DNA of 64,000 nucleotides from Candidatus Omnitrophota bacterium (GTDB lineage Bacteria > Omnitrophota > Gorgyraeia > Gygaellales > UBA12090). This document shows positions 19,436-62,049 of the stretch, piece after piece; position 1 is the stretch's first letter, and every line of letters starts with the position of its first letter. The position numbers and the translations under genes are program-made. Under the pieces are notes generated by a model. That model was not told where the DNA came from. It ran no database searches and was given only the letters and a program-made list of their open reading frames with translations. The stretch covers positions 87,819 to 151,818 of the forward strand of contig JAUSCZ010000023.1 in assembly GCA_030674475.1 (NCBI GenBank), written 5' to 3'.

Positions 19436-19465
19436 ACACCTTGGCCTATCGGAAGGCCAAGGTGT
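19436..19465 (+). promoter_or_regulatory. perfect 11-bp-arm inverted repeat (acaccttggcc-tatcggaa-ggccaaggtgt) immediately upstream of the hsdM ribosome-binding site
   Basis: Read directly; followed by AAGGAG at 19476-19481 and GTG at 19489. Confidence 0.4.
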
Positions 19466-19488
19466 TCGCTTGTGCAAGGAGATCTCGA

Positions 19489-21495: not shown

Positions 21496-22583
21496 AAAAA
21501 CCATATGCTCCGCAATCATTGCCGCTTGATTCATTAGATTGGGTTAGATTTGTTTCGCTTATAGGACCGGCCAATGCCGAATTGGCGCGCTATGACGGAA
21601 TTCTGCAAGGGATTCTTAACCCTAGAGTACTGCTTTCCCCGCTAACAACCAATGAGGCAGTTCTTTCTTCAAAAATTGAAGGAACGCAGGCTTCGTTACA
21701 GGAAGTTTTGGAGTTTGAGGCATCCCCTGATTTAAGAACAGAGAAGCGAGAAGATATTCTGGAGATTCTCAATTATCGTAAGGCGATGCAGTTGTCCGTA
21801 GATTGGCTTAAGTCCAAGCCCATTACGCTTAATATGATCAAGGATGTTCATAACACGCTTTTAGACAGCGTGAGAGGTAAGGATAAAGCCCGCGGGCAAT
21901 TTCGCAGGTTACAAAATTGGATTGGGAAACCCGGGACGCCCATGGAAGAAGCTATGTATATTCCTCCAGACCCTATGTTTCTCATGGATCATTTATCCAA
22001 TTTTGAGAAATATATCCATTTTGATGAAAAAGACCGGCTTGTTCAGTTAGCCATCGTTCACGCGCAGTTTGAAATTATTCATCCTTTTTTAGATGGGAAT
22101 GGACGTTTGGGGCGTATTCTGATACCACTCTTTCTTTATGAGAAGAAAGCATTAGGGTCGCCGATGTTTTATATCAGTGAATATCTGGAATCCCATCGCG
22201 ATGAATATTACGCCAGGTTGAACGCGATAACCTCCGATGGGCAATGGAACGACTGGATTGAGTTTTTCTTAAAAGCCGTGCTTGAACAGGCAAAGAATAA
22301 TAGCGCAAAGGCAAAGGCTATCTTAGATCTTTACAATGCCAAAAAAGATAAGATTATGGCCGTAACTCATTCGCAATATACAGTTAAAATTTTGGATACT
22401 TTATTCAAGACGCCGATTTTTAATATGACTGATTTTATAAAAATTTCAGGTATTCCCAAAGCAAGCGCAACCCGAATTCTGAATATTCTTAAAAAAGAAG
22501 AAATGCTGGCGGTTTTACATCAAGGGAGAGGGAGATCTCCCGGGGTTATGGCTTTTACCAAATTATTAAAGATTTGTGGCTAA
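21492..22583 (+). CDS. Fic/Doc family protein (AMPylase-type, with C-terminal winged-helix) inserted between hsdM and hsdS
   Basis: Canonical Fic motif HPFLDGNGRLGR; overlaps the hsdM stop by 4 nt. Confidence 0.85.
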   Translation: MKKPYAPQSLPLDSLDWVRFVSLIGPANAELARYDGILQGILNPRVLLSPLTTNEAVLSSKIEGTQASLQEVLEFEASPDLRTEKREDILEILNYRKAMQLSVDWLKSKPITLNMIKDVHNTLLDSVRGKDKARGQFRRLQNWIGKPGTPMEEAMYIPPDPMFLMDHLSNFEKYIHFDEKDRLVQLAIVHAQFEIIHPFLDGNGRLGRILIPLFLYEKKALGSPMFYISEYLESHRDEYYARLNAITSDGQWNDWIEFFLKAVLEQAKNNSAKAKAILDLYNAKKDKIMAVTHSQYTVKILDTLFKTPIFNMTDFIKISGIPKASATRILNILKKEEMLAVLHQGRGRSPGVMAFTKLLKICG

Positions 22584-30600: not shown

Positions 30601-31150
30601 ATTGAAAAAGGTTTACGATCGCTTAAATAAGGACAGTGGCGATCAGCCAGAACGTCCGTTGTTTTTTAAAGATGTGAGTCCGGATGAAGAGGTTGCGGAG
30701 GACCAGAAGTATGTTGATTTTCTGCCGGTATATTCGCTCCAGGCTGTAGCGACAAGCTTTGGTAAGGAAGAGCACGTGGAAATGCTTGGATGGAAGAAAA
30801 TAAAAAATAAACGGCTGAATAAAGACATGTTTATTGCTCAGGTTGTTGGTAAGTCAATGGAGCCGACAATTTTGGATGGTAGTTTTTGTCTTTTCCGCTT
30901 TGAGCGGGGCGGCTCGCGCAATGGTTTGGTGGTGCTTGTCGAATCTCGGTTGGTTACCGATCCTGAAACCAGCCAGAAATTTACAATCAAGCGCTATAAA
31001 AGTGAAAAAGAAACTTTGCCCGATGGCGGGTGGAGGCACAAGCGCATAATACTCTCACCTGATAACAAAGACTTTAAAGATATCACTCTGGAGAATGTGA
31101 GCGGTGATGATTTTAGAATCGTAGCAGAATTTGTAGAGGCATTATCTTAA
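27620..31150 (+). CDS. hsdR: type I restriction enzyme R subunit with a C-terminal LexA/UmuD-like S24 serine peptidase domain fusion
   Basis: SF2 helicase motifs (GSGKS Walker A, VIVDEAHSSQ DEAH box, GFTATP, QTMSRLNR). The C-terminal ~110 aa carry S24 motifs: VVGKSMEPTILDGSFCLF (Ser nucleophile), FTIKRYK (catalytic Lys), RIILSPDNKDF...GDDFRIVAEFVEAL. Confidence 0.85.
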   Translation: MRLRMVSIINEKAFEESIEQSLIDHGGYVKGDPNNFSRDLAIDQAVLFQFIKDTQKNVWDSLTAIHGADVEKKFLYRLNQELDARGMLDCLRRGVTDYGKKIMLAYFKPVSKLNPETQKLFDKNILTVTRQVHYSTKDESSIDMLLSINGLPVATIELKNPFTGQDVDDAKRQYKYDRDERELLFQFKKRALVHFAVDTDVIYMTTRLQGSKTRYLPFNKGYNKGSGNPPNPSGHKTAYLWEVVLVKDSWMDILGRFLHLEVEEKAFDGRKFKIETLIFPRYHQLDSVRKLSSDALANGAGKNYLIQHSAGSGKSNSIAWLAYHLAGLYDKGDKRIFDAVIVITDRIVLDKQLQDTIYQFEHKLGVVEKIDKDSTQLAQALTSGTNIIITTLQKFPFVLDKVGALPRRNYAVIVDEAHSSQGGESAKKMKDVLSALDKTEIVSEKADEDDDIEDEIRESMLKRGPRPNLSFFGFTATPKAKTLEFFGQKGIDGKPQPFHLYSMRQAIEERFIFDVLENYTSYQTFFQLSKKIEDDPNMNKKKAACAIARFLTLHPYNLAQKTEVMIEHFRQVTMKKIGGKAKAMVVTASREHVVRYKHEFDRYLKEKGYKDIKALVAFSGKVLLDGIPPEYTEEGINTYIDKQGQTRYVREKELPGKFATSEYQILLVAEKYQTGYDEPLLHTMYVDKRLDGVKAVQTMSRLNRTCPGKEDTFILDFVNKREDILAAFQPYYEQTQLSDVTDPNKLYDLKTKLDSFRVVYQSDIDAFCVVFFRNKELQTKREHAQLNSIVDVAVERFKVIEKDEHKEDFVNTLGVFVRLYAFLAQIMPFQDIELEKFYAYSRLLLKKLPGPDRGERYHLGDEVALEYYRLQKIADGKIQLQKDSGAAIEPISEAGTKKDKDEYALLSEIINLLNDRFGTDFTEADKLFFDQIEEEMVMDEKLGVQAKTNTMDNFKYGFEDVFIAKLVDRMDQNQDIFNKIMDDKAFAAVVKDYLLKKVYDRLNKDSGDQPERPLFFKDVSPDEEVAEDQKYVDFLPVYSLQAVATSFGKEEHVEMLGWKKIKNKRLNKDMFIAQVVGKSMEPTILDGSFCLFRFERGGSRNGLVVLVESRLVTDPETSQKFTIKRYKSEKETLPDGGWRHKRIILSPDNKDFKDITLENVSGDDFRIVAEFVEALS

Positions 31151-44252: not shown

Positions 44253-44329
44253 TTTATAGTTGATAGTTTATAGTTAATAGCAAATATAGCTAAAACCCTA
44301 AACCCTAAACCCTAAACCCTAAACTAAAT
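44244..44329 (+). mobile_element. heptamer-array element copy A: (AGTTKAT)x5 - AGCAAATATAGCT - (AAACCCT)x4, filling the korA-korB gap
   Basis: Tandem 7-mers read directly. The korA stop codon lies inside the first array and the korB ATG abuts the last repeat; related copies at 52528-52638 and 59918-60024. Confidence 0.6.
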
Positions 44330-49035: not shown

Positions 49036-50199
49036 ATGGAACGGATATATTTAGATTACGCGGCTACTACGCCTTGCGACGCGCGGGTAGTGGAGGCAAT
49101 GCAGCCGTATTTTAGCGAGAAGTTCGGCAATCCCTCAAGCATACATTCTTTTGGTCAGGAGGCCAAGAAGGGTTTGGAGGATAGCCGTCAGGTTTTAGCG
49201 GATTTTTTGGGGGCAAAGCCTGAAGAGATTGTTTTTACCTCTGGTGGCACTGAGTCTAATAATTTTGCAATTTTTGGCATTGCCGCGGCGCAAGAGAAAA
49301 AAGGTAATCATATTATTACCAGCGTGATTGAACATCACGCGGTGAGCGAGCCGTGCAAAGTTTTAGAGAAGAAAGGCTATGCTACAACTTATGTGAAAGT
49401 GGATAAAGAGGGCATAATTGATCCGGCCGAGGTTAAAAAAGCGATTACCGATAAAACGGTCTTGATCTCCATAATGCAGGCTAATAATGAAATTGGGACC
49501 ATTCAGCCCATAGCGGAAATCGGTAAAATTGCCAAAGAAAAAGGGATTACCTTTCATACCGACGCGGTGCAAAGCGTAGGCCATATCCCGGTCAATGTCA
49601 ATGAGTTGAGTGTGGATTTATTAAGCCTTTCGGCGCATAAGTTTTACGGGCCCAAAGGGGTCGGGGCGTTGTATATCCGTAAGGGCATCCGGATAAACCG
49701 TCTTTTGCATGGTGGAGACCAGGAAAAAGGCCGCCGGGCCTCAACCTCTAATGTCAGCGGTATTGTGGGCATGGCCAAGGCCATTGAATTATGTAAAGAA
49801 AAGTTAAATGAGGAAGTCAAATTTCAGTCTGATTTACGCGATACCCTGATTAAAGGTTTAACGGCTAAGATTGAGAGAATTTATCTTAATGGCCATTCTA
49901 AATTGAGACTGCCTAACAATGTAAATATATCTTTTGAGTATATTGAAGGCGAGTCAATGCTTTTGAATCTGGATATGTTAGGGATTGCCGCTTCCACCGG
50001 CTCAGCCTGCACCTCCAGTTTTTTAGAGCCTTCCCATGTCCTGCTGGCTATTGGCCGTCCGCATGATCTAGCCCATGGCTCATTAAGGTTTTCTTTAGGC
50101 CGCTGGACTAAAAAAAGCGATATTGATTACCTTATTGAGGTTCTTCCGGGAATAGTGGATAAATTGCGCCAGATGTCGCCTCTATATGAAAAAAAATAA
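49036..50199 (+). CDS. nifS: cysteine desulfurase (NifS/IscS class)
   Basis: PLP-Lys motif SAHKFYGPKG, active-site loop SGSACTS, 387 aa. Confidence 0.85.
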   Translation: MERIYLDYAATTPCDARVVEAMQPYFSEKFGNPSSIHSFGQEAKKGLEDSRQVLADFLGAKPEEIVFTSGGTESNNFAIFGIAAAQEKKGNHIITSVIEHHAVSEPCKVLEKKGYATTYVKVDKEGIIDPAEVKKAITDKTVLISIMQANNEIGTIQPIAEIGKIAKEKGITFHTDAVQSVGHIPVNVNELSVDLLSLSAHKFYGPKGVGALYIRKGIRINRLLHGGDQEKGRRASTSNVSGIVGMAKAIELCKEKLNEEVKFQSDLRDTLIKGLTAKIERIYLNGHSKLRLPNNVNISFEYIEGESMLLNLDMLGIAASTGSACTSSFLEPSHVLLAIGRPHDLAHGSLRFSLGRWTKKSDIDYLIEVLPGIVDKLRQMSPLYEKK

Positions 50200-51217
50200 G
50201 AAAGCGTTAAGAACTAAAAAATACAGGCTGATGCCAGGAGATGGTAGTTTTATAGCGCGTATCACGGATAGCGTGCTTAAAGGGAGAGAGGTGAATCTCA
50301 GGCAGGCTAAGAGGCTGAACGCGATAAAAGGCGACGATATTTACAGTCTTTTTAATTCGGCCTACAAAATCCGCAAGAAATTTCGGGGGAAAAAGGTGGA
50401 GCTTTGCGCCATCACCAATGCCCGAAGCGGGGCCTGCGCGGAGAACTGCGCTTTTTGCGCCCAGTCCAGTTGGAATAAAACCGCGGTTAAGGTTTATCCC
50501 TTACTTAGCGAGAATGAGCTCTTTAAAAGGGCTAAGCAGGCCCAAAAAACCGGGGCGGGTTATTTTTGTATTGTTACCAGCGGCCGGCGCATCCAGAAGA
50601 AAAGCGATTTTTTGAAAATCTGTAAGGCTATTTCCAAAATCCGCTCTAAGCTAAAACTTAATGTTGATGCCTCATTAGGAGAACTAAGCCTTGATGAAGC
50701 CCGGGCGCTTAAAGACGCTGGCTTATTTCGCTATAACCATAACTTGGAGACTGCCGCAAGCCTGTATCCGGAAGTCTGCACTACCCACACCTATTCTGAC
50801 CGGATAAGGACAATTGAAAATGTCAAACAGGCGGGTTTAGAACTTTGCTGCGGCGGGATATTCGGGATGGGGGAGAGCTGGGCCCAGAGACTGGATCTGG
50901 CTTTTGCCTTGAAAAAGTTTAACCCGGAGTGCATCCCGGTAAACTTCCTGAATCCTGTTGCCGGAACTAGACTTGGCCGGAAAAAACCCTTATCTCCCCT
51001 GGAATTCCTCAAGATTACCGCTATCCTGCGTTTTATCTTTCCCCGCCAGGAAATAAAAATCTGCGGTGGCAGAGAGACCAACCTAAGGAGCCTTCAGCCG
51101 TTAATGTTTTTGGCCGGAGCAGACTCAATGATTATCGGCGACTACCTCACCACCAAAGGCAATCCTCCCCAGGACGACCTTAAAATGATTCAGGATTTAG
51201 GTTTATCCACGAATTGA
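50186..51217 (+). CDS. bioB: biotin synthase-like radical SAM enzyme
   Basis: CxxxCxxC (CAENCAFC) radical-SAM triad, YNHNLETA motif as in BioB; genomic context with bioF/bioC/bioH/bioDA. Confidence 0.65.
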   Translation: MKKNKKALRTKKYRLMPGDGSFIARITDSVLKGREVNLRQAKRLNAIKGDDIYSLFNSAYKIRKKFRGKKVELCAITNARSGACAENCAFCAQSSWNKTAVKVYPLLSENELFKRAKQAQKTGAGYFCIVTSGRRIQKKSDFLKICKAISKIRSKLKLNVDASLGELSLDEARALKDAGLFRYNHNLETAASLYPEVCTTHTYSDRIRTIENVKQAGLELCCGGIFGMGESWAQRLDLAFALKKFNPECIPVNFLNPVAGTRLGRKKPLSPLEFLKITAILRFIFPRQEIKICGGRETNLRSLQPLMFLAGADSMIIGDYLTTKGNPPQDDLKMIQDLGLSTN

Positions 51218-51232
51218 CCCGGACGTGCTACA

Positions 51233-51275
51233 GTAGCGGCGCGATTTATCGCGCTTGGAAGGAGATTTTCGGGTG
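51233..51275 (+). promoter_or_regulatory. conserved leader element (palindrome GGCGCGAT-TT-ATCGCGCT + AAGGAG + N8 + GTG) upstream of bioF; second copy at 62324-62366
   Basis: 43-nt sequence about 88% identical to 62324-62366; the differences inside the palindrome are compensatory. Confidence 0.55.
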
Positions 51276-52436
51276 ATAAATTTTAAAGAAGAATTGGCCG
51301 CGCTGGAAGCCAGAGGCTTAAGGCGCAAAATGCGCTTTGTTTCTTCGTCTTGCGATAGATACATCACGATTGAGGGTAAAAAGGTTTTAAACTTTTGCTC
51401 CAATAATTATCTGGGCCTGGCTAATGATAAACGGCTGAAAGCGGCGGCAATCTCGGCAATCAATAAATTTGGAGTGGGAACTGGGGCCTCAAGATTAGTT
51501 TCCGGCAGTAATATCCTGCATAAGCAATTAGAAGAAAAATTGGCTGATTTTAAAAGGCAGGAAGCCTGTTTAGTTTATCCCAGCGGCTATAGCGCCAATT
51601 TAGGGATAATTTCCGCCTTGGCAGATAGAAACAGTATTGTTTTTTGCGACCGCTTGAATCACGCTTCAATTATTGACGGGATTATCTTAAGCCGGGCCGA
51701 GCTGGTGAGGTATCCGCATCGGGATGTAGAAGCGTTAGAAAAATTGTTAGGTTACCATGTCACAAAGTCACAAAGTCACCAGAAACGATTGATAGTAACC
51801 GATAGCGTATTTAGTATGGATGGGGATATTGCTCCTTTGCCGGAGCTTTTGCGCTTAGCCAAAAAATACGATTGCCTGCTGATGATTGATGAAGCCCACG
51901 CCACCGGCGTTTTGGGTAAGAGCGGCAGAGGGACCTTGGAACATTTTGGCCTCAAGGCCAATAAGCGGATAATCCAGATGGGGACTTTGAGCAAGGCTTT
52001 GGGTGGCCTGGGCGGATTTCTCTGCGCAAGCCGGGAGCTGATTGACTATTTGGTTAACCGTTCGCGTTCCTTTATCTTTAGCACTGCCTTGCCCGCGGCT
52101 CTATGCGCCAGCGCTTTAGAGGCAATCAGGATAATTGAGAGAGGCGGCAATCAGCACGCAAGGCTTTTAAGTAATGCCAATTTTTTAAGAGACGGCCTAA
52201 ACTCCTTAGGTTTTAATACCTTAGAGTCTCAAACCCCGATTATTCCCATCCTCACCAAAGAACCGCGCCTAACCATGGAGTTCAGCCAAAAGCTATTTGA
52301 AAAAGGCATCTTGGTTCAAGGCATCCGCCCCCCGGCTGTCCCCGATAACCTCTGCCGTCTCCGGGTCACGGTGACGGCCAGCCACACCAAAGGCGATTTA
52401 GAGTTTGCCTTAAGTATGTTTAAAAAGATAAGATAA
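51273..52436 (+). CDS. bioF: 8-amino-7-oxononanoate synthase (ORF track starts at TTG 51255; GTG 51273 has AAGGAG 8 nt upstream)
   Basis: Class II aminotransferase fold of alpha-oxoamine synthases; PLP-Lys in TLSKALGGLGG; context with other bio genes. Confidence 0.65.
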   Translation: MINFKEELAALEARGLRRKMRFVSSSCDRYITIEGKKVLNFCSNNYLGLANDKRLKAAAISAINKFGVGTGASRLVSGSNILHKQLEEKLADFKRQEACLVYPSGYSANLGIISALADRNSIVFCDRLNHASIIDGIILSRAELVRYPHRDVEALEKLLGYHVTKSQSHQKRLIVTDSVFSMDGDIAPLPELLRLAKKYDCLLMIDEAHATGVLGKSGRGTLEHFGLKANKRIIQMGTLSKALGGLGGFLCASRELIDYLVNRSRSFIFSTALPAALCASALEAIRIIERGGNQHARLLSNANFLRDGLNSLGFNTLESQTPIIPILTKEPRLTMEFSQKLFEKGILVQGIRPPAVPDNLCRLRVTVTASHTKGDLEFALSMFKKIR

Positions 52437-52527
52437 TAGTAGCTCCTGCCCAAGAAAGCGCTTGCCCAAAACCCCTGTTTTGCCCTTGTTTTTACCCCTT
52501 TTATGTGGTTTACTTTAGGTAGCCGAA

Positions 52528-52638
52528 TTAGTTTATAGCTGATAGTTGATAGTTTAGAGCAAAAGATTAGCGAACTAAATAGAATTTATGTTTGTTTTTT
52601 TGCTATCAACTATCCGCTATCAACTATCAACCAAATAT
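52528..52638 (+). mobile_element. heptamer-array element copy B with terminal inverted heptamer arrays, inserted exactly between the ancestral leader (…CTTTAGGT) and the start codon of giant paralog 3
   Basis: Left array agtttat-agctgat-agttgat-agtttag, right array (reverse complement) gctatca-actatcc-gctatca-actatca. The flanking 52464-52524 aligns with 1424-1476 upstream of paralog 1, where the ATG follows immediately. Confidence 0.65.
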
Positions 52639-55600
52639 ATGCCTTTACGCCTAACCAAATTCCTATCTCTGTTTCTCTCTTTCTGCCTTATCCTTGAGCA
52701 GAGCGTCTTTGCTCAAAGCATAGACCTTTCCCATTACTTTGCCAACTCTGGCAAACCTATTATCCAGAGCGATAAATTTCGGCCCTTACACCTAAGGTAT
52801 CTAGGCTATGATAACTTGAGTCAGGACTTTAAGCTACTTTTAGATAAGGGAGATACTAAGAAGGAGGACTTAGAGAACAAAGCCTACATAGAAGAAAACA
52901 CCCAAACCCTGCTCAAATACTTCTTCATCGGATTAAGCCTGCCTAATGATAAGTTTTGGGTTAACCTAAGGCCGGATGCCTCGGAGAATATCATAGATGA
53001 CGACTTAGCCAAGACAGATATCGGCAGGATTATGCTGGAAGCTGATGTCCAGCTAAAGAAGGATACTGCAAGCTATACCTCACCCCAGGCCAAAGAAGGC
53101 CGGGAATACTGGGATAAGCTGTATAAGAAAGCAGAAGAGCTATTCGGAACCGAAAACATCACCATCCCCACCCTAACTAGGCCATGGATTGTCCCGGACG
53201 AGATTATTTTAAGAGAATCTCCGGATAACAGCGCCTACATTTACAAAGCTACCCTCAAGGTGATGTTGGAAGAGGACTACCTAAAAACCAGCAACCAGCC
53301 CGTCCTGGCAAAGCGAAGCGGGCCAGGGAAACCAGTAACCAGTAACCAGGTATATTCTTTTAGTGACCCCAGGCTAAAAGAGCTTAATCAATATTCTACC
53401 CAGCTAATCAAGGAAACCATAATCCCCAAGCTCACCCAGGAGATCAACTCATCCAGGAGATACGCTCCCCTAAGACAAGTCTATTACTCTCTCATCTTAG
53501 CCCAGCACTTTAAACGGAAGTTTGCCAAGCAGCCCTCGGGGCAGGCAGGAGAAAATCCCTATGTTAAGCTGATTGACTCCTGTAACCTTACCAACCTAAC
53601 CTCCAAAGAACCCTGGGATAAACTTACCTGCTTCCAAGGCTATCAGAAATCCTTTCAGCAGGGAGAATACAATATTCAAGAGCCGGTGTATACGCCTACG
53701 GGGCAGGCAATAAGAAGCTATTTTAGTGGGGGGCAGCTTCTAACAAATATTCTCAGAGTAACAACGGTAACCCCGGGGTTTGGACCACCTTCTATTTCAG
53801 GCAGCATCCATTTGAAAAAAATTGACTATTCTGTTTCGCCGGTTGCCAAAGGGGACGTAAGCCTTTTGACTGGGTTAAGGTCAAGCTCAGCGATTGAGGA
53901 AAGAAATAATGCGTCTTTATTATCTATGGGAAACTCGACCTTGAAAGGAAGGCCAACGAGAATAATGCTTTCTTTCTTTTCTAACGTTCGTGATAAATCT
54001 AAGCTTGACAATCCATTGGGAGTCGCAGTCTTAGGTGGTACTTTGAAACAGCAACTTAAGGATACTGTCCATATTGTTATGGCACATCATCTGATTGATG
54101 GCGGAGTAGAAGGAATCATCGAAAAAATAAAGATTGAGCATCCGGAAATATTAGGATTATCTCTCGGCTTTGGTTCTTTGCAACAACTGATTACTGTTAT
54201 GCAATATATTCGTTCATTGCCAGCCGCGGAAAGACCCATTGTTGCTTTAGGTAATGTTGTAGCGACTTATAACACAGAATTTTTTCTGAAGCAATACCCG
54301 GAGGTTTTTATTTGTGCAGGGCAAGGTGAAATGGCAATAGTCGATCTCGTCAAATATCGCAGAGGCGAAATAAAGAAAAATGAAATACATGATGTTGTGT
54401 ATATGAATGATGGTCAGATTATTGCAAATCCAAGGAGTCAGTCATTTCTCGTAGATATGGGAACGCCTATGACAGACTTTTTGCCCGATGTAGTAAAATC
54501 CGGGGGTGTTGTTTATATGGAGACCTCGCGCGGCTGTCCTTTTAATTGTACGATATGCGCGCGCAGACCTTTTTTGGGCATAGGTTGGAAAGGCAGGAAT
54601 TTAGATAATATTATTGGCGATATGGAGAAGGCGGCTAACTTGGGCGTCAAATTTATTAACTTTGTTGATGAAGATCTATTTGCTGGCGGTATGAAAAGGG
54701 TGATTCGTTTTGCTCAAATGATTCATGAGGCAAGAAAAGCAGGACGGATTCCTGATGATCTTATTTTTGGTACATCGGTAAGCGTAAGGAATATTTACAG
54801 AATAAATGATTCATTAGAAAATAATCTAAAAAGAAAGCAAGCCTTGGAATTATTGAAAGAGGCCGGCCTTACAGTTCTTTTCATAGGGATTGAATCTGGT
54901 TCGCCAAAGCAACTCGAGCGCTATGGTAAGGCTGCAACCATCAAAGAGAACGAGGAAGCCATTAGGATTATTGAGGATTGTGGAATATGGACTATCCCGG
55001 GTTTTATTATGCTGGATCCGCTTGTGACAATAGAGGAGATCAGGGAGAATATTGATTTTTTAAGACGAACAGGGATGGATGCCCGGATTACGTATCCTTT
55101 AAAGACATATATCCCAATGATAGGAAGCTCTTACACTCAAAAATTAATTGAAGAAGGTTTAGTTTATTCAGTCTCCTATATTCCTGATCGGTTAGCATAC
55201 GAATATTCATTTAGAGAAAAAAGAGTCGCAGATATCTTAAAAAGAATAAAAGATTGGGAAGAAAGCCAAGCAATGTTTTTCTGGGATCTAAAAATTATTT
55301 TTCGTTCCTCGCGTTTTGGTGAATTAAGCCGGGATAAACAAGAATTGGTTAGGACATTAGTTGATAAACAAACCAAGATTTTATTAGATTATTTGGATGA
55401 AATGGTTAATCTAAGCTTGAGCGAAATAGAACAAAAAGAAGTTTTTCAGAGAATATCTTTTAAGTTTGGCGTCCGCTTGATTAACGATATGTTGGAGGCC
55501 TTGCAGTACGTGGAAAATGGTTATTTGCCGCTTGGAGACAAAGAATTCAGAAGTATTATACAGAAAAGTATTATTCGGGAGATTTTGCGGTTATACTTTA

Positions 55601-56247
55601 CACAAAAACAATTTTCGATGGAGGAAGTAAGGCGTATTATCTCTGAGGAATTCCACTATAAATTTAAAGAAGATATTTTAAAGGAAATTTTTGCTTTGTT
55701 TATTAAGGAAGAACGCATCAAACAAATAGACGATAAGACGTTCTGCTTACACGAAAAGTTTTTTGTCTACAGGAATATTCCGTGGCCAGATTTGCCTAGG
55801 CCAGCTAAAGTTATAGTTGGCATTGATGATTTGGCAAGCTCGCCGTTGATTCCTCAGAAAGTTAAATTCCCGGGTGGCATCGACTTACGTTTTCTCCCTA
55901 TAGTTACCCAGGCCATAAGCAACCTAAGTTTGAACGCTTCCCGTATTCCTTTAAGCAAGTTGGATAGCATTAACCTTAATCAGGAATGGCGCCAGATACA
56001 AAAGATGGTTGAAGCCGGCATTACGCCATCAGCGGAGAGGATTAAGGAGTATATCCAGCTATCTTATCTTAATAAAGGTGAACCTAATGATATGCAGAAA
56101 GTCATTTCTTGCATTGCGGATATATTAAGATCTGAAGAAGAGCGCTGCGTTTCTACTGAGCCAACGCTAAAAGATATTCTGGTTGTGCTTGAGTCAGGAC
56201 GGTCGGCTCAGGAACTAAAAGCTGTTTTTACCGGTAGTCAGTCCTAA
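52639..56247 (+). CDS. giant paralog 3 (1203 aa from ATG 52639; ORF track begins at 52588 inside the inserted element). Family N module + B12-binding-like domain + radical-SAM core + family C module
   Basis: N-terminal 330 aa align with paralogs 1 and 2. Middle has a Rossmann-like B12-binding region, then radical SAM CxxxCxxC (CPFNCTIC) and FINFVDEDLF. C-terminus has the family C module (GGIDLRFLPIVTQ ... VEAGITPSAERIKEY ... ISCIADILRSEEER). Confidence 0.7.
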   Translation: MPLRLTKFLSLFLSFCLILEQSVFAQSIDLSHYFANSGKPIIQSDKFRPLHLRYLGYDNLSQDFKLLLDKGDTKKEDLENKAYIEENTQTLLKYFFIGLSLPNDKFWVNLRPDASENIIDDDLAKTDIGRIMLEADVQLKKDTASYTSPQAKEGREYWDKLYKKAEELFGTENITIPTLTRPWIVPDEIILRESPDNSAYIYKATLKVMLEEDYLKTSNQPVLAKRSGPGKPVTSNQVYSFSDPRLKELNQYSTQLIKETIIPKLTQEINSSRRYAPLRQVYYSLILAQHFKRKFAKQPSGQAGENPYVKLIDSCNLTNLTSKEPWDKLTCFQGYQKSFQQGEYNIQEPVYTPTGQAIRSYFSGGQLLTNILRVTTVTPGFGPPSISGSIHLKKIDYSVSPVAKGDVSLLTGLRSSSAIEERNNASLLSMGNSTLKGRPTRIMLSFFSNVRDKSKLDNPLGVAVLGGTLKQQLKDTVHIVMAHHLIDGGVEGIIEKIKIEHPEILGLSLGFGSLQQLITVMQYIRSLPAAERPIVALGNVVATYNTEFFLKQYPEVFICAGQGEMAIVDLVKYRRGEIKKNEIHDVVYMNDGQIIANPRSQSFLVDMGTPMTDFLPDVVKSGGVVYMETSRGCPFNCTICARRPFLGIGWKGRNLDNIIGDMEKAANLGVKFINFVDEDLFAGGMKRVIRFAQMIHEARKAGRIPDDLIFGTSVSVRNIYRINDSLENNLKRKQALELLKEAGLTVLFIGIESGSPKQLERYGKAATIKENEEAIRIIEDCGIWTIPGFIMLDPLVTIEEIRENIDFLRRTGMDARITYPLKTYIPMIGSSYTQKLIEEGLVYSVSYIPDRLAYEYSFREKRVADILKRIKDWEESQAMFFWDLKIIFRSSRFGELSRDKQELVRTLVDKQTKILLDYLDEMVNLSLSEIEQKEVFQRISFKFGVRLINDMLEALQYVENGYLPLGDKEFRSIIQKSIIREILRLYFTQKQFSMEEVRRIISEEFHYKFKEDILKEIFALFIKEERIKQIDDKTFCLHEKFFVYRNIPWPDLPRPAKVIVGIDDLASSPLIPQKVKFPGGIDLRFLPIVTQAISNLSLNASRIPLSKLDSINLNQEWRQIQKMVEAGITPSAERIKEYIQLSYLNKGEPNDMQKVISCIADILRSEEERCVSTEPTLKDILVVLESGRSAQELKAVFTGSQS

Positions 56248-56329
56248 CCAAAAAGTGGCATTTCCCGCCTAGTTTATTTTTTTTCCGCCTTCTCTTCCAT
56301 TATTCAATTTATCATTAGTAACTGTTAAG

Positions 56330-56400
56330 CCAAACCTACCCCGCTAACCTTAAAAGATGTGCTTATCCGGCTGGAAAATGACCCATCCTTATTTGACTAA
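56330..56400 (+). pseudogene. orphan 3'-end remnant of another giant-family paralog
   Basis: cctaccccgctaaccttaaaagatgtgcttatccggctggaaaatgac parallels 8994-9045 of paralog 2 (…TPQILKDVLILLESDNP); an in-frame stop interrupts it. Confidence 0.5.
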
Positions 56401-56537
56401 AGAGGGCTGGAAGAAGCTGGGGGGAGATAAAAGAGGGGGAGGAGATTGCCTGCCTATCCTGCCATCGGCTTCCCGTCTCGCCTTTGGCTCGCCGAGGCGG
56501 ACGCCGCGAGGCGAGCAGTCAAGCGGTATTAGGAGAT

Positions 56538-56801
56538 TTATCTTCTACGGTAGGCGTCTTCGCGGGTGTCAACGCCGTCAATAATTATATTAAGGCCTTC
56601 AATATAGAAACAAATACGATACTTTCCGACTCTGAATCTATGTGTAGCTGGCGGAAGATTAACCAGGGGTTTGGCAAAATGCAGGGGATTGCGGGAGGAA
56701 ATATATAGGCCGATTTTCTCGATAATTCTGTTTTGCAGTTGGTGGGAGAGCCTCTTGAAGTCTCGTTCTCCGGCAGGGGTAAATTCAAGACTTTCAATCA
56801 T
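56538..56801 (-). CDS. RelE/ParE-family type II toxin
   Basis: 87 aa; LEFTPAGERDFKRL ... HRFRVGKYRICFYI ... VDTREDAY matches the RelE/ParE fold signature. Confidence 0.75.
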   Translation of the reverse strand: MIESLEFTPAGERDFKRLSHQLQNRIIEKIGLYISSRNPLHFAKPLVNLPPATHRFRVGKYRICFYIEGLNIIIDGVDTREDAYRRR

Positions 56802-56809
56802 CTTGCTGG

Positions 56810-57262
56810 TCAGGATAATCCTAGCTCATGCTTGATCTTCTCAAAAGGAACCAGCCCTAACTTTTGGGCTTCAACAATGCCCTTTTTTAGTTTTAGCGCT
56901 AATTTAGGGTTGACCGGCAGGTGGGTTTCGATGGCGTCAATAAGCCAGCCGACAGGATTGTGGTGGACATATTCTTTGGCTGGAACGTTTTCTTCAAATT
57001 TCGTATCAAAGGCACAAAGCATATCCCAAAGCGAATATGTGTCAAATATAAAATACTTAGGAGAGCCGCCCTTATCTGTTATTACTCCGGCTTTGAAATT
57101 TTTAGGAGAAGATAATCCGGCATTTTTAAGCTCTTTGGCAGAAACAGCTGAAAATTTTGTCAGCTTCTCTAGCTTCACTAATTTTTTCCCCAAAGATATA
57201 CTGGACAATGATTTTGCTTTCATTTCTTTGCTCCTCAATAAAGAGGATAACATATCCAGCAA
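56810..57262 (-). CDS. Phd/YefM-like antitoxin (start codon uncertain; internal Met codons possible)
   Basis: Directly upstream of and co-oriented with the RelE gene (8-nt gap); the central region resembles the Phd/YefM fold. Confidence 0.5.
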   Translation of the reverse strand: MLDMLSSLLRSKEMKAKSLSSISLGKKLVKLEKLTKFSAVSAKELKNAGLSSPKNFKAGVITDKGGSPKYFIFDTYSLWDMLCAFDTKFEENVPAKEYVHHNPVGWLIDAIETHLPVNPKLALKLKKGIVEAQKLGLVPFEKIKHELGLS

Positions 57263-57329
57263 TTCAAGTCAAGGCAATTTCCAGGATTTGTCTTGATACT
57301 GAGTGATTACTTTAAGATTATATAGTATC

Positions 57330-57360
57330 TTGACAAGTCATATATAATATGTTATATAAT
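57330..57360 (+). promoter_or_regulatory. sigma70-like promoter (TTGACA-N17-TATATA/TATAAT) positioned so that transcription would start at or within about 3 nt of the ATG of the HTH-Fic gene (leaderless mRNA candidate)
   Basis: ttgaca at 57330-57335; tatataat at 57353-57360; ATG at 57365; no SD. Confidence 0.4.
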
Positions 57361-57364
57361 AATT

Positions 57365-58291
57365 ATGCTGAATAGCAATAATTATATTGGCAAAATCAGG
57401 GAAATGCTGGAAAAAACCGGCTGGGGGCAAGCTCAATTTGCCCAGGAGCTGGGCGTAACTTTTGCCACAGTTAACCGCTGGCTCAACGGCCACCACAGGC
57501 CGCATTTGAGCCAGATACGCCAGATTGAGAGGTTACATAAAAACATTATCGGAATCATCCCGGTAACCAAGCAAGAAATGGAGCAGATTATTTTACAGTT
57601 GAAGGCCAAGATAAAGCAGTATCCGGATATTAAGAAAATCTTGCGGGATGATACAACATCCGAGGAGTTTCTGTTGGAGTTGACCTATAATTCCGACGCC
57701 ATTGAGGGGAATACATTAACTAAGAAAGAGACGGAAACAGTTATCTTCAATAACGCCTCTATCAAGGATAAAAGCTTAATTGAACATCTGGAGGCGGTAA
57801 ATCATGCGGTGATCCTGAAGGATATTTTTTCGGGGAAGATTGGCTGCCCGGTTGATGAAGAGCTGATAAAAAAGACGCATAAGATATTGATGCAGGGCAT
57901 CCGGGATGACGCCGGCGAATACGCCAGCCATCAGAGGGCAATCCGGGGGGTGGATTTGATCCTGCCGTCCCCCGATGATATTGCCGGGGAAATGAAGTTA
58001 TTTTTAAGCAAAGTTAATGACTTCCCGCCTCGACCGATTGAGCATATTGCCAGGATGCACGCGGATTTTGAGGCGATTCATCCTTTCGGCGACGGCAATG
58101 GCCGCGTAGGACGGCTGATTATGATTGTTCAGTTAATTCATTGTGGTTTTGCTCCCTGTATCATTAGCGTTAATGAAAAAGCCCGGTATTATGAATCCCT
58201 AGAATATGTCCAAAAAAAGTCTGAAACGCATCTTGTGTGTTTCCTGGCTGAAGCGGTATTGAAGGGCTATGAGTTAATTAGTTCTCACTGA
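57365..58291 (+). CDS. Fic-family protein with N-terminal Xre-type HTH
   Basis: HTH (GQAQFAQELGVTFATVNRWLNG) and Fic motif HPFGDGNGRVGR. Confidence 0.8.
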   Translation: MLNSNNYIGKIREMLEKTGWGQAQFAQELGVTFATVNRWLNGHHRPHLSQIRQIERLHKNIIGIIPVTKQEMEQIILQLKAKIKQYPDIKKILRDDTTSEEFLLELTYNSDAIEGNTLTKKETETVIFNNASIKDKSLIEHLEAVNHAVILKDIFSGKIGCPVDEELIKKTHKILMQGIRDDAGEYASHQRAIRGVDLILPSPDDIAGEMKLFLSKVNDFPPRPIEHIARMHADFEAIHPFGDGNGRVGRLIMIVQLIHCGFAPCIISVNEKARYYESLEYVQKKSETHLVCFLAEAVLKGYELISSH

Positions 58292-58450
58292 AAAACTCTC
58301 GTTTTTCAGTGAGAACTAATTCCAAAGGGGCTCACGCCCCTATGGCGTTCGTTCCGACTCCGTCGGAACTCACTGTTACCCCTTAAGGGGGTTGCCTGCA
58401 ACCCCCTTAAAATCCCCCAGTAGTTACCACTTTTTCAGTGGTAACTAATT
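58279..58450 (+). other. cluster of five consecutive perfect stem-loops bounded by direct repeats TTTTTCAGTGRKAACTAATT (58302-58321 and 58431-58450); candidate structured RNA or REP/MITE-like insertion
   Basis: Five stems read directly: a 17-bp stem covering the Fic stop; aggggc-tcac-gcccct; gttccgac-tcc-gtcggaac; ttaagggggttg-cctg-caacccccttaa; agttaccact-ttttc-agtggtaact. Confidence 0.5.
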
Positions 58451-58469
58451 GGCAAGAGATATAAATGAT

Positions 58470-59171
58470 ATGGTTAAGACCCTGGTCTTTATCCACGGCT
58501 GGGCCAGCGCGCCGGAGATCTGGCAGAGGCAGAGGGAATATTTTGCCAAAGATTATGAGGTTGTCCTGCCGGATATAAGTCCGGCCCGGGATATTCAAGA
58601 AGCGGCAGGCCTGCTCAAGGATGCAATTAAAGACAGGAAGGATTTTGTCCTGATTGGCTGGTCTCTGGGCTGGATGGTGATTTTAGAAGCGCTCAAGAGT
58701 TTATCCTTAAAGCCTAAGGCCGTGGTGGCGGTAAATTCTACGCCTAATTTTTGCTCTGACGAATATCTGGAGACAGGTTTTACCCAAACCCATCTGAATA
58801 AGATGATAAGGGATTGTAAGCGCGATCCCCAAAAGACCAGGGAGAATTTTTATAAAGGACTCCTTACAGAGAGCGGAAAGAGCATGGCCAGCAGTTTTCA
58901 GTTTAAAAACATAGATTATAGCAAGCTGATTTATGGCTTGTCCATGCTTAAGGATGCTAATTACCGGGATTTTATCCGGGCTATAGATATCCCGGCGCTG
59001 ATTATTACCGGGGCCAGGGATACTATTTGTGTTCCTCAGGTATCCGAATATATGCGTCAGAGGATTAAGCAGTCGGAATTAAAGGTTTTTGACTGTGGGC
59101 ACTTGCCGTTTCTGGATAAGGCTGAGGAATTTAATTTCGCGATAGCTGATTTTATTAGAAAGTTAAAATGA
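58470..59171 (+). CDS. bioH: alpha/beta hydrolase, BioH-like pimeloyl-ACP methyl ester esterase (ORF track starts at TTG 58449)
   Basis: VFIHGW N-terminal motif, nucleophile elbow GWSLG, C-terminal His in CGHLPF; adjacent and coupled to bioC. Confidence 0.55.
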   Translation: MVKTLVFIHGWASAPEIWQRQREYFAKDYEVVLPDISPARDIQEAAGLLKDAIKDRKDFVLIGWSLGWMVILEALKSLSLKPKAVVAVNSTPNFCSDEYLETGFTQTHLNKMIRDCKRDPQKTRENFYKGLLTESGKSMASSFQFKNIDYSKLIYGLSMLKDANYRDFIRAIDIPALIITGARDTICVPQVSEYMRQRIKQSELKVFDCGHLPFLDKAEEFNFAIADFIRKLK

Positions 59172-59929
59172 TTTCCACTCAAAAAATAAGAGATAATTTT
59201 TCCCGCAGCGCGATACATTATGAGAAATACGCGGATATTCAGGCCAAGCTGGCCCAAGAACTACTGGAAGAGGTAATCGGAGCAGGATATACAGCGAATG
59301 AGGTCTTGGACATTGGATGCGGAACCGGATGGCTATTGGGTGAGCTAAAGAGATTTCTGCCCCAAAGCCGGCTCTGGGGTTTGGATATCAGCCTGGCAAT
59401 GGCGCGTAAGACAAAAGCAAAGATTGAAGAGGTGTTGACCGCGGATGCCGCCTTTTTGCCGTTTAAGGATAAGGCCTTGGACCTGGTTTTATCCAATGCC
59501 GTTTATCAATGGGTGCCGGATTTGGAGGCGGCCTTTAAAGAGGCGCGTAGGATTCTTAAATCCGGCGGCTGTTTTATGTTTAATTGCTTTGGGGCCAAGA
59601 CCTTGCGGGAACTGCGCCAGTGTTTTGGGATAGAGGAAACCTTTCTTCCTCGGGCGGATTTTATAAGAGAGGCGTTGGAGAGGGCAGGGTTTTCCTGCCC
59701 GGAGTTTAAGGTCAGGGAGTGCAACCGGCATTTTGATAATTTAGCCGATATCTTAAGCTGGCTGAAATATATCGGGGTAAACCGGATTAATCAGCATCAG
59801 GGGTTTTTAACCCCGTCCCGGCTGGCTAAGGCCGACCATTTCTATCGCAGTAACTTTCGCGGTAACGGCCAGGTCTATGCCACCTTTGAGGTCATCAGCG
59901 TAAAAGCAATAAAAGCAGTTGATAGTTGA
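59168..59929 (+). CDS. bioC: malonyl-ACP O-methyltransferase
   Basis: SAM-binding motif LDIGCGTGW, about 250 aa, N-terminal YEKYADIQ typical of BioC; the stop codon lies inside element copy C. Confidence 0.6.
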   Translation: MISTQKIRDNFSRSAIHYEKYADIQAKLAQELLEEVIGAGYTANEVLDIGCGTGWLLGELKRFLPQSRLWGLDISLAMARKTKAKIEEVLTADAAFLPFKDKALDLVLSNAVYQWVPDLEAAFKEARRILKSGGCFMFNCFGAKTLRELRQCFGIEETFLPRADFIREALERAGFSCPEFKVRECNRHFDNLADILSWLKYIGVNRINQHQGFLTPSRLAKADHFYRSNFRGNGQVYATFEVISVKAIKAVDS

Positions 59930-60024
59930 TAGTGTATGCCTGCCTGCCGGCAGGGTTTATAGCAAATAAATTAAAACTGTTTATCAATGAGCTATAAACT
60001 ATCAACCATAAACCATAAACTAAA
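59918..60024 (+). mobile_element. heptamer-array element copy C (GTTGATAGTTGATAGT - palindrome CCTGCCGGCAGG - …AAACTAT CAACCAT AAACCAT AAACTAA) between bioC and bioDA
   Basis: Read directly; provides the bioC stop codon and abuts the bioDA ATG with no SD. Confidence 0.6.
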
Positions 60025-62049
60025 ATGTCTAATTCTATATTTATCACCGCAACCGATACCGGAGCCGGGAAAACCATTATTTCCTGCGCCATTGGCCTGG
60101 CCTTGCAAAAAAAAGGTATTGATGTTGGATATATGAAACCATTTCAATGCTCCGGCGATGACACGGATTTTGTGATTAAGACCTTAGGTATTCAAGACGA
60201 TAAAAATTTGGTTAATCCTTATTACGCGAAAGAGCCGCTTGCTCCCTATGTCGCCTTTAAAAGGGAAAAAATAAGGATCAATTTAGATAAAGTCTTTTCC
60301 GCGTATCATAAGTTAAAAAAAAGACACGAATTCCTTATCATTGAAGGCGCCGGCGGGCTGTTAGTTCCCTTGCGAGAAAATTATCTGGTTGCGGATTTGA
60401 TCCGGGACCTGGATGTCCCGGCGCTCATTGTGGCCAGGGCAGGCTTAGGGACATTGAATCATACTTTGCTTACCCAAAGATACGCCCTGGATTACGGGGT
60501 TAAGGTTAAAGGCGTAATCATTAATAATTATCAAGGAAAGACTGCCGCGGAAAAGACCAATCCCAATGTCTTAAAGGAATTCCTGGATGTGCCTATTTTA
60601 GGAATAGTTCCTTGGTTGAAAAATGTTAAGTCTAAAGATGGCTTGAGGAGGCTGGGGAAAATAGCCGGGGAAAATATAGATTTAAAGACTTTACTAAAAA
60701 CAGAAAAGCCCCTCACCCGGCAGTTGATTAAGCGGGATAAGGATTTCCTCTGGCATCCTTTTACCCAGATGCGGGATTGGCTTAAGGATGAGCCTTTAAT
60801 TATTGATGAGGCCAAGGGGAATTATTTGAAAGATACTAACGGCAAATGGTATTTAGACGGAGTCTCCAGCCTTTGGGTGAATGTTCACGGCCACCGCAGA
60901 AGAGAGATAGACATAGCCATAAATAGACAACTGAATAAGGTGGCCCATAGCACATTGTTGGGATTAAGCAATGTGCCTTCTATTGAATTGGCCCAGCGGC
61001 TGGTAGAGATTGCCCCCAAAGGCCTGATCAAGGTTTTTTATTCCGACAGCGGCTCAACCGCGGTGGAGATTGCCTTGAAGATGGCTTATCAATATTGGCA
61101 GTATCTGGATAAGGCTAAAACAAGATTTATTCATTTGGAGAACGCCTATCATGGAGATACCATAGGCTCGGTGAGTGTGGGCGGGATGGATTTGTTTCAT
61201 AAGACCTACAAGGGTCTGCTTTTTGAGAGCTATAAGGCGGATTCGCCTTATTGCTACCGCTGTCCCAAGGGTAAAAATTATCCTGGGTGTAATTTTGAGT
61301 GTCTGGATAGGCTAAGAGATATTTTAAGACAACATCATTCTTCAACTGCCGCGCTTATAGTTGAGCCTTTAGTCCAGGCCGCCGGCGGTATCATTGTTTG
61401 GCCTGAAGGCGTATATAGGAAGATGCGCGAGCTTTGCCATAAGCATAATGTGCTTTTGATTGCCGATGAGGTGGCCGTAGGTTTTGGGAGGACTGGCTAT
61501 ATATTTGCCTCTGAGACTGAAGGTGTAACGCCGGATATCTTGTGCTTAGCCAAGGGGATTACCGGGGGGTATCTGCCTTTAGCCGCCACCCTGACTACCC
61601 AAAAGATATTTGATGCCTTTTCGGGAGAGTATAAGGAACAAAAGACTTTTTTTCACGGACACACCTATACCGGAAATCCCCTGGCCTGCGCCGCTGCCTT
61701 GGCCAATTTAGGGCTTTTTAAAAAAGAAAAAACCCTCCAAAAACTTCAGCCCAAGATTAAATTTTTAGGAAAAGAATTAGAGAAGTTTAAGAAATTGGAG
61801 CATATCGGAGACATCCGCCAGAAGGGTTTTATGGTGGGAATTGAACTGGTAAAAAATAAAGGAACCAAAGAGCCGTATTCCTGGGAAGAAAGGATTGGGA
61901 TAAAGATTTGCCAAAAGGCCAGGGAATATGGGGTCATCCTGCGCCCCTTAGGCAATGTCATTGTCCTTATGCCGCCTTTGGCGATAAGCAAAGAGGAATT
62001 GAAACAGCTTGTTGATGCCGCCTATAAGGCGATAAGTTTTGTGCAATGA
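60025..62049 (+). CDS. bioDA: bifunctional dethiobiotin synthetase / adenosylmethionine-8-amino-7-oxononanoate aminotransferase fusion (BioD-BioA)
   Basis: N-terminal BioD P-loop FITATDTGAGKT and EGAGGLLVP. C-terminal class-III aminotransferase motifs (DEVAVGFGRTG, HGHTYTGNPLACAAALA). 674 aa, a single ORF. Confidence 0.8.
   Translation: MSNSIFITATDTGAGKTIISCAIGLALQKKGIDVGYMKPFQCSGDDTDFVIKTLGIQDDKNLVNPYYAKEPLAPYVAFKREKIRINLDKVFSAYHKLKKRHEFLIIEGAGGLLVPLRENYLVADLIRDLDVPALIVARAGLGTLNHTLLTQRYALDYGVKVKGVIINNYQGKTAAEKTNPNVLKEFLDVPILGIVPWLKNVKSKDGLRRLGKIAGENIDLKTLLKTEKPLTRQLIKRDKDFLWHPFTQMRDWLKDEPLIIDEAKGNYLKDTNGKWYLDGVSSLWVNVHGHRRREIDIAINRQLNKVAHSTLLGLSNVPSIELAQRLVEIAPKGLIKVFYSDSGSTAVEIALKMAYQYWQYLDKAKTRFIHLENAYHGDTIGSVSVGGMDLFHKTYKGLLFESYKADSPYCYRCPKGKNYPGCNFECLDRLRDILRQHHSSTAALIVEPLVQAAGGIIVWPEGVYRKMRELCHKHNVLLIADEVAVGFGRTGYIFASETEGVTPDILCLAKGITGGYLPLAATLTTQKIFDAFSGEYKEQKTFFHGHTYTGNPLACAAALANLGLFKKEKTLQKLQPKIKFLGKELEKFKKLEHIGDIRQKGFMVGIELVKNKGTKEPYSWEERIGIKICQKAREYGVILRPLGNVIVLMPPLAISKEELKQLVDAAYKAISFVQ

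Follow-up and report, generated by a model that had tools for sequence, protein, structure and literature searches.

We analyzed a window of 64,000 nucleotides from contig JAUSCZ010000023.1 of a Candidatus Omnitrophota bacterium, and in it the gene at 52639–56247 (+ strand), referred to here as paralog 3. Sequence comparison confirmed that residues 424–1057 of its 1202-aa product make up a complete class-B (cobalamin-dependent) radical-SAM (S-adenosylmethionine; rSAM) enzyme. This enzyme, the payload, is enclosed by an N module and a C module which, judged by their sequences, define a very large, multi-copy, Omnitrophota-restricted and unannotated protein family. The domain call alone is ordinary, because the identical NCBI protein (P0001) is already labeled ‘radical SAM protein [Candidatus Omnitrophota bacterium]’; out of the ordinary are its architecture, the size of the family and the paradox of where such an enzyme would be located. 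We tentatively read the family as a co-regulated set of modular exported effectors whose payloads would act in the cytoplasm of another cell, and we give this reading nearly, though not quite, an even chance of being correct.

A complete cobalamin-type radical-SAM enzyme in paralog 3

The open reading frame (ORF) of paralog 3 is uninterrupted. Residues are numbered in the 1202-residue form, whose start at MPLRLTKF (52639) was set by family alignment; the public annotation starts 17 codons upstream, at 52588, and has 1219 residues. The limits of the payload were taken from a stand-alone homolog, P0231 of Candidatus Termititenax persephonae (649 aa), residues 8–647 of which align with residues 424–1057 of paralog 3 at 48% identity, including the helical tail and the terminal IPWPDLPRPA. 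Based on this end-to-end match, the payload was assigned to 53908–55809 (+ strand); the first-pass annotation of this sequence had placed the enzyme at 53830–55730, which is correct as to location but not as to extent. All strings quoted there are present in the translation, VHIVMAHHLIDGG, ILGLSLGFGS and PIVALGNVVATYN at residues ~477–545, CPFNCTIC at 633–640 and FINFVDEDLF at 672–681. On the same strand, the payload consists of a Rossmann-like cobalamin-binding domain (54010–54348, residues 458–570), a radical-SAM partial TIM-barrel domain (54517–55062, residues 627–808) that holds the predicted [4Fe-4S] cluster motif CPFNCTIC (54535–54558; C633, C637 and C640), and a C-terminal helical part (55063–55809, residues 809–1057, ending in IPWPDLPRPA) that is conserved in the stand-alone homologs up to their C-terminus.

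Profile searches supported both of the domains that had been proposed from the sequence. Pfam Radical_SAM (PF04055) matched residues 627–808 with 58.6 bits (cut-off 29.5, E 1.1e-15), over profile positions 1–166 of 166. The B12-binding profile (PF02310) matched residues 459–570 with 28.2 bits (E 1.8e-6), slightly under its cut-off of 32.1, which is exceeded in the homologs P0005 and P0230. Twenty NCBIfam models for B12-binding rSAM proteins matched paralog 3 across both domains, with best scores of 85.6 against a cut-off of 481 (BchE) and 84.5 against 360 (TIGR04014), the rest being further below. Since all of these scores lie far under the equivalog cut-offs, paralog 3 falls within the class but is none of the named enzymes; BchE, Mcr glutamine C-methyltransferase, ArsL, PhpK, HpnJ/HpnR and the other named equivalogs were rejected on these grounds. 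The single PADLOC match of paralog 3 also falls on the rSAM core.

[quoted passage not shown] The motif residues listed for OxsB (PMC9204698) were mapped onto paralog 3 by alignment, and the positions of the cluster cysteines and of the SAM and cobalamin motifs proved to be conserved or conservatively replaced, apart from N186. The cluster cysteines C313/C318/C321 correspond to C633/C637/C640, and R323 of the Cys loop corresponds to R642. In the SAM-binding motifs, E363 (GGE), E436 (ribose motif) and I474 (GXIXGXXE) are matched by D679, E752 and I790, and the SAM contact K448 by K764. In the cobalamin domain, G182/S184 of the G-x-S motif, the beta4 glycine G216 and the Gly-Glu pair G241-E242 correspond to G506/S508, G538 and G563-E564, and only N186, at the lower face of the corrin, is not conserved, being G510 in paralog 3. 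Together with the PF02310 match, this alignment upholds the proposed Rossmann-like B12-binding region, and a cobalamin domain placed N-terminal to the rSAM domain, as found here by the sub-threshold PF02310 match, the OxsB alignment and the NCBIfam models, is the arrangement of class B. The cysteine triad, a CX3CX2C motif at the start of the barrel, is invariant in all six family members with an rSAM core and in the stand-alone homologs; in view of this invariance, the PF04055 score and the alignment to the OxsB cluster cysteines, it is a genuine and not a fortuitous motif, in agreement with the first-pass annotation. From these motifs, the payload is predicted to bind a [4Fe-4S] cluster, to cleave SAM and to use cobalamin.

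Both OxsB and paralog 3 have a helical region after the barrel; nevertheless the two enzymes differ in several respects. The cluster motif is CX4CX2C in OxsB and CX3CX2C in paralog 3, H325-K326 of OxsB are not conserved, its N-terminal domain I (residues 1–159) has no match in paralog 3, and identity is low outside the motifs. In addition, OxsB is a stand-alone cytoplasmic biosynthetic enzyme, whereas the enzyme of paralog 3 is a cassette behind a signal peptide. A gene for an OxsA-type HD phosphohydrolase was found adjoining none of paralog 3, P0002, P0229 and P0231. An assignment as OxsB ortholog was rejected, given the CX3CX2C spacing, the glycine at the position of Asn186, the unmatched domain I and the missing OxsA partner. 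On sequence grounds the payload is a new member of an OxsB-like branch of the class-B radical-SAM enzymes.

Three stand-alone proteins, P0231, P0229 and P0232, are 48–53% identical to the whole 634-residue payload and by this measure belong to the same enzyme family, but they lack the N and C modules, both of which are present in paralog 3. P0231 has no hydrophobic leader. The stand-alone P0229 and P0232 begin with basic-then-hydrophobic leaders of the N-in type (MLLKRKRNKIIALFLTQIFIYIFAVMHCNFIFADD and MCACVFRKKAVWITIILVGMVSSTLLASE), so the puzzle of an export signal on such an enzyme is not confined to the scaffolded form. The gene neighborhoods of these stand-alone homologs have nothing in common. 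Among proteins that do carry the modules, core identity to paralog 3 is 78% for P0002 and 55% for P0003, and the full-length P0002 is 65% identical over 98% of the length; this architecture was recovered from independent assemblies (P0002, P0003, P0004, P0005 and P0007). When homologs were searched with the core alone, identity past five close relatives fell to 35% or less, the matches being ordinary cytoplasmic B12-rSAM enzymes of ~510 aa that have no leaders.

The substrates of OxsB are dAMP, dADP and dATP (PMC9204698). In P0007 (locus L002, 519–6743), the B12-rSAM core is combined in one polypeptide with a cytidylate kinase domain (residues 1764–1979), and in P0004 with a PPDK_N ATP-grasp domain (residues 1464–1787). 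The pairing of rSAM and CMP kinase in P0007 resembles the viperin-CMPK2 pairing and hints at nucleotide substrates. The OxsB substrates and the two fusions are weak leads toward nucleotides as substrates of the payload.

A large modular protein family of Omnitrophota

The modules on either side of the payload are real family modules, as the first-pass annotation had held: paralog 3 and paralog 1, another gene of the window, share 71–76% identity in the N module and 45% in the C module. In paralog 3 the N module (52714–53733, + strand, residues 26–365) ends in IRSYFSGG and is followed by a variable linker rich in Ser, Gly and Pro (53734–53907, + strand, residues 366–423) that is not conserved in the family alignment. 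The C module (55873–56244, + strand, residues 1079–1202) contains the peptide GGIDLRFLPIVTQ and then a helical bundle of ~90 aa. Across the family, the C module of ~125 residues runs from a Ser/Pro-rich linker through a GGIDFRxLPIVTQ peptide to a five-helix bundle. In the model of a short member, P0077, the C-terminal helical bundle has a pLDDT (predicted local distance difference test) of 83–93 and the GGIDF peptide is disordered; Foldseek matches of this model were generic helical repeats. Cargo of the type IX secretion system, which carries a C-terminal beta-sandwich domain of ~80–100 aa, was rejected as an identity for the family, the C module being predicted as a disordered peptide plus five helices instead. 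For the ~340-residue N module no known fold was found. Neither module matched any Pfam or NCBIfam model, nor, in profile and sequence searches, PDB sequences, PHROGs or PADLOC.

A profile of the N module retrieved 8079 representatives (clustered at 50% identity), of which 6688 have E<=1e-30; in every case the module occupies residues ~1–350, and the proteins range from 410 to 7391 aa. Most members are 0.6–2.5 kaa long, with a single leader and no transmembrane (TM) helices. A search for relatives with paralog 3 gave more than 2000 matches, and the 120 best of these were surveyed through their precomputed Pfam content. All 120 have the N module, normally at the N-terminus, and in 116 the C module forms the extreme C-terminus; the rSAM core is present in only six. 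The other centers include class I methyltransferases (at least 13 proteins), GNAT, Peptidase_M23, FHA with metallophosphatase, PPDK_N/PEP-utilisers, HEAT, TPR and Fic, and further HPr, HPr kinase, DnaJ, CheR, RIO1, HD and cytidylate kinase. Most centers have no Pfam match, and most identifiable payloads are cytoplasm-type enzymes that need ATP, SAM, acetyl-CoA or phosphoenolpyruvate (PEP). Peptidase_M23, whose substrate, peptidoglycan, is extracytoplasmic, is the payload in three relatives, one of which (P0012) pairs it with GNAT. As far as architecture is concerned, the earlier suggestion of a family that carries diverse enzymatic payloads thus holds, with terminal N and C modules in 116 of 120 proteins and unrelated centers between them.

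A scan of species-representative genomes yielded 501 confirmed matches; the best 80 of these nearly all bear the label Omnitrophota or Omnitrophica, the few others being labeled ‘bacterium’ or ‘uncultured Planctomycetales’. Single genomes contain eight or more copies, and at least seven family members from the same metagenome-assembled genome (MAG) appear among the best 120 matches. With 55–76% identity across genomes and paralogs, the N module is conserved more strongly than most housekeeping proteins. The borders of the cassette carry short conserved peptides: the N module closes with ...YFSGG, and the C module opens with GGIDFRxLP. Where the N module ends in ...YFSGGIDF, as it does in some members, the payload is flanked by similar motifs on both sides. 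Some rSAM-bearing proteins (P0003, P0007 and P0230) begin with an N module of a second, divergent kind (...LNLPAPG...PLQFDFI..GDD...LWVNLSPYE...), with ~30–34% identity, and their C-termini differ as well and still start with GGIDF or GGADY; the family is accordingly broader than its main type. Searches of the accessible literature turned up no account of either module, of the GGIDF motif or of the shared operator described below.

Two further members lie in the same window. Paralog 1 (1477–5478, + strand, 1333 aa) has the same leader, N module and C module around an unrelated center of 800 aa without Pfam match. Paralog 2 (5517–9068, + strand) starts with the leader MPPKSKKLISLILCFLLIFQQTGFAQ and has its N module, center and C module spread over three ORFs (5517–6419, 6622–8064 and 8280–9068). 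Comparison with family proteins by tblastn located two compensating frame changes, near 6331–6374 and near 8064; paralog 2 is either a pseudogene or a MAG assembly error.

Exchange of modules

Across 115 proteins, identity to paralog 3 in the N module was anticorrelated with identity in the C module (Spearman rho -0.59, p 2.5e-12). The closest N modules (70–76%) go with the most distant C modules (33–46%), and the closest C modules (65–75%) go with N modules of only 54–64%. P0002, the nearest relative of the payload at 78% core identity, is only ~50% identical in both the N and the C modules. The G+C content at third codon positions (GC3) of the N module of paralog 3, 0.549, is similar to that of the surrounding housekeeping genes (0.47–0.58), whereas the payload has 0.30–0.38 and the C module 0.43. 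Paralog 1 has the same dip in its center, such that in both intact paralogs GC3 falls from ~0.55 to 0.30–0.40 and rises again in the C module. Such a dip could arise if the payloads were foreign or younger, or if the conserved modules had undergone GC-biased conversion. Taken together, the discordant relatives of the modules and the GC3 dip show that paralog 3 is a mosaic whose modules have been exchanged by recombination, possibly with homogenization of the N modules.

A shared upstream element

Upstream of paralog 3, a conserved family element at 52455–52522 (+ strand) contains the palindrome GAAAGCGCTTGC (consensus GAAAGCGCTTTC) and boxes resembling -35 and -10 promoter elements. Over this 68-nt segment it is ~85% identical to 1412–1478, upstream of paralog 1. 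The consensus of the element, AGAAAGCGCTTTCCCAAAACCCCTGTTTTAGCCTTGTTTTTGCC..TTTTATGTGGTATACTTTAGGTA, comprises a perfect 12-bp palindrome followed by the -35/-10-like boxes, and in at least 18 loci of other genomes (among loci L003–L061) the same element immediately precedes a family gene. In 929 kb of sequence, all 27 copies of the palindrome GAAAGCGCTTTC lie no more than 260 nt upstream of a family gene. Because the palindrome was found only upstream of family genes, the family looks like a regulon, and the sequence suggests one regulator for the whole family with the palindrome as its putative operator.

An insert of ~117 nt separates the conserved element from the ATG of paralog 3, and within it, at 52541–52628, are three copies of the 12-mer CTATCAACTATC, one inverted and two direct. 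Including near-copies, this 12-mer occurs seven times in the window, against an expectation of 0.34, always between genes and partly as inverted pairs. The groups are at 44255–44273, 52541–52628 and 59921–60003, one of them between bioC and bioD-bioA. The CTATCAACTATC copies may represent a small repeat element, or else an operator.

Leader, localization and possible function

The first-pass annotation had ascribed a signal-like leader to the N module of the other paralogs, and such a leader was seen in paralog 3 itself too. Its Sec-type leader (52639–52713, + strand, residues 1–25) reads MPLRLTK-FLSLFLSFCLIL-EQSVFA↓Q, that is, MPLRLTKFLSLFLSFCLILEQSVFA↓Q, the arrow marking the predicted cleavage after VFA. 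It combines a basic n-region, an h-region within the 7–15 residues of Sec/signal peptidase I substrates and small residues at -3/-1. The h-region is short (~12 residues), has K/R on its N side and is the sole hydrophobic segment of the protein. The family consensus is M..K..K-ILSLLLCFLLIF-EQSGFA↓Q; a tripartite leader with small -3/-1 residues was present in 197 of 211 complete N-termini, and the site reads G-x-A↓Q in 144. Tat export was rejected (no RR in the leader of paralog 3, RR-like in 2/211 family leaders), as was a lipoprotein (lipobox-like in 1/211). A signal-anchor topology, which had been offered as one possibility, is not favored, in view of the short h-region with K/R on its N side, the G-x-A↓Q-type site, the tripartite leaders in 197/211 and the lack of any other hydrophobic segment.

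Radical-SAM chemistry depends on the iron-sulfur machinery, SAM, reductant and cobamide of a cytoplasm, and for this reason the destination of paralog 3 would tell where the whole family acts. Most payloads need cytoplasmic cofactors, the leader and the positive-inside rule place the chain outside, and some members carry an M23 peptidase; given these three points, an exported effector is the most economical reading. The family would then be a co-regulated arsenal of exported modular effectors of ultra-small, host-dependent bacteria, and Omnitrophota have indeed been described as ultra-small and host-dependent or predatory (PMC10066038). In the proposed mechanism, the leader would carry the unfolded chain over the cytoplasmic membrane, and the N module, being invariant, would serve, alone or perhaps jointly with the C module, as a common handle for a shared step of export, attachment or translocation. 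The variable center would be the business end. As the centers are overwhelmingly enzymes that require ATP, SAM or acetyl-CoA, they would be active inside a partner or prey cell, in its cytoplasm, where the radical-SAM payload would obtain its iron-sulfur cluster, cobamide, SAM and reductant and, once matured, would modify a small molecule or protein of the recipient by radical chemistry.

Several points weigh against this proposal. We know of no Sec-exported iron-sulfur or cobalamin radical enzyme and of no radical-SAM effector. Next to family genes, no conserved secretion, chaperone, immunity or accessory gene was found in 79 loci, and paralog 3 itself is located among biotin-synthesis genes. 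Neither module has detectable similarity to known secretion, translocation or pore-forming domains, and the full-length AF2 model of P0077 (pLDDT 53, predicted template-modeling score 0.25) is too poor to judge an interaction between the N and C modules. The signal-peptide assessment was a rule-based count rather than the output of a trained predictor, and export, cleavage, delivery and activity of family members are inferred rather than shown. A more specific version is possible but doubtful: that the family is a new delivery platform of Omnitrophota nanobacteria, with paralog 3 as the first iron-sulfur/cobalamin radical enzyme to be exported free of cofactors, matured with those of the host or prey and acting there as an effector, possibly by converting nucleotides into antimetabolites.

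Polymorphic toxins and effectors such as MARTX, CdiA and Rhs-type proteins combine exchangeable enzymatic cassettes with conserved delivery parts. From general knowledge of these systems, the Omnitrophota family is alike in having conserved terminal regions around or before variable cassettes, and it shares with MARTX and polymorphic effectors the border peptide motifs, the recombination between modules and the many paralogs per genome; exchangeable cassettes with evidence of recombination, as expected of polymorphic effectors, were thus found here. The variable part is internal in this family and in MARTX but C-terminal in CdiA and Rhs, and its payloads, unlike those of polymorphic toxins, appear to be regulatory or metabolic and not toxic in the classical sense. 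In neither sequence nor fold did the family modules resemble RTX repeats, TPS/FHA-1, Rhs, CPD, PAAR or another known delivery or processing domain. By analogy the family resembles MARTX-type and polymorphic effectors, but every homology-based test of membership was negative.

Giant Omnitrophota proteins with a signal peptide or TM segments have the same domain repertoire, including Radical_SAM, according to the searchable text of two preprints (bioRxiv 10.1101/2023.11.21.568195; 10.64898/2026.06.07.730766), which is in keeping with the exported-effector reading. As described there, archaeovorin- and dockerin-type giants (West-Roberts et al. 2023; 2026 complete-genome preprint) carry methyltransferases, GNAT, PPDK_N, HEAT/TPR and Radical_SAM behind predicted signal peptides, as do the proteins studied here. 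The published giants, by the same text, are at least 10,000–85,000 aa long with many TM helices, in contrast to the present family of mostly 0.6–2.5 kaa and up to 7391 aa. In their searchable text, the giant-protein preprints give no description of either module, of the GGIDF motif or of the shared promoter.

Alternatively, the family may be exported but stay bound to its producer, the N modules, perhaps by co-assembly, building or docking on a periplasmic or cell-surface scaffold that displays the centers; the rSAM center would then work in an unusual extracytoplasmic compartment or be a non-catalytic binding module. We consider this unlikely, although it agrees with the Sec-type leader found throughout the family, with the extreme conservation of the N module (55–76%), as would fit a common lattice or partner, and with HEAT, TPR and M23 payloads, which suit a surface or periplasmic role. 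The searchable literature likewise takes the giant Omnitrophota proteins as membrane-anchored or extracellular. However, outside the cytoplasm there is no supply of the ATP, SAM, acetyl-CoA or PEP on which most identifiable payloads depend, and the cluster, SAM and cobalamin motifs of the rSAM center are all conserved, which is unexpected for a mere binding module. Fe-S assembly is not known to occur outside the cytoplasm, which also speaks against such a display.

A further explanation keeps the protein in the producer: the leader would be an uncleaved tether or be unused, and the enzyme an ordinary B12-dependent radical-SAM enzyme of the producer cytoplasm, which the N and C modules would keep at the membrane. 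Radical-SAM chemistry needs cytoplasmic cofactors, as this explanation provides. It also accommodates the intact catalytic motifs, the leaderless state of the closest stand-alone homolog (P0231, Ca. Termititenax) and the location of the gene among housekeeping and biotin genes, including that for the radical-SAM biotin synthase. For TM-only giant proteins with such domains, the accessible text of the 2026 preprint prefers a position on the cytoplasmic face. We nevertheless give it little credence, given that the K/R residues preceding the hydrophobic stretch place the rest of the chain outside by the positive-inside rule and that the h-region of only ~12 residues is followed by the conserved G-x-A↓Q site. 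Moreover, hydrophobic leaders of the N-in type are present on P0229 and P0232 too, although these have neither module, and the M23 peptidase payloads on the same scaffold need export. Lastly, a decayed or fortuitous radical-SAM match, or a fusion created by assembly, is very improbable and refuted as far as sequence analysis can go: the B12-binding score slightly under threshold, the NCBIfam scores far under equivalog cut-offs and the disrupted frame of the neighboring paralog 2 would fit it, but they are outweighed by the OxsB match across both domains with cofactor motifs kept, by the recurrence of the architecture in independent assemblies and by an ORF unbroken over 1202 codons.

Omnitrophota are widespread, uncultivated and ultra-small and are thought to live off other cells, and the family bears on how they act toward their partners. 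It is a defined and testable object, with thousands of members, a common export leader, an N domain, a C module, a shared putative operator and swappable centers. Should the proteins enter other cells, as we favor, they would form an effector platform of a new kind, in which radical-SAM chemistry is put to a new use. If they stay in the producer, they would point to unusual cell biology in Omnitrophota. Either way, the family merits a domain definition in public databases.

Genomic neighborhood

Paralog 3 lies between bioF and a Fic gene with a helix-turn-helix (HTH) domain, in the order nifS-like, bioB, bioF, paralog 3, Fic, bioH-like, bioC and bioD-bioA. The biotin cluster (49036–62049) is otherwise contiguous and is broken by paralog 3, two ORFs and the HTH-Fic gene (57365–58291); the two ORFs, at 56733–57296 (+ strand) and 56810–57262 (- strand), are unannotated and overlap each other. 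The ortholog P0002 has quite different neighbors, namely cutA, dsbD and thioredoxin genes, and no synteny was detected among the rSAM-bearing members. In the 79 family loci, synteny with glmS/rsmI was confined to one orthologous subset. The 64-kb window contains neither secretion genes nor genes for cobalamin synthesis or uptake; a CbiA-type match at 60025 was rejected as a cobalamin gene, as it belongs to a BioD-like domain.

Elsewhere in the window, a type I restriction R subunit (27620–31150; HSDR_N, SWI2_SNF2/ResIII and T1R_D3) ends in a LexA/UmuD-like Peptidase_S24 domain at residues 1056–1171, an unusual fusion, and a Fic_N-Fic gene (21492–22583) immediately follows hsdM (19411–21495).

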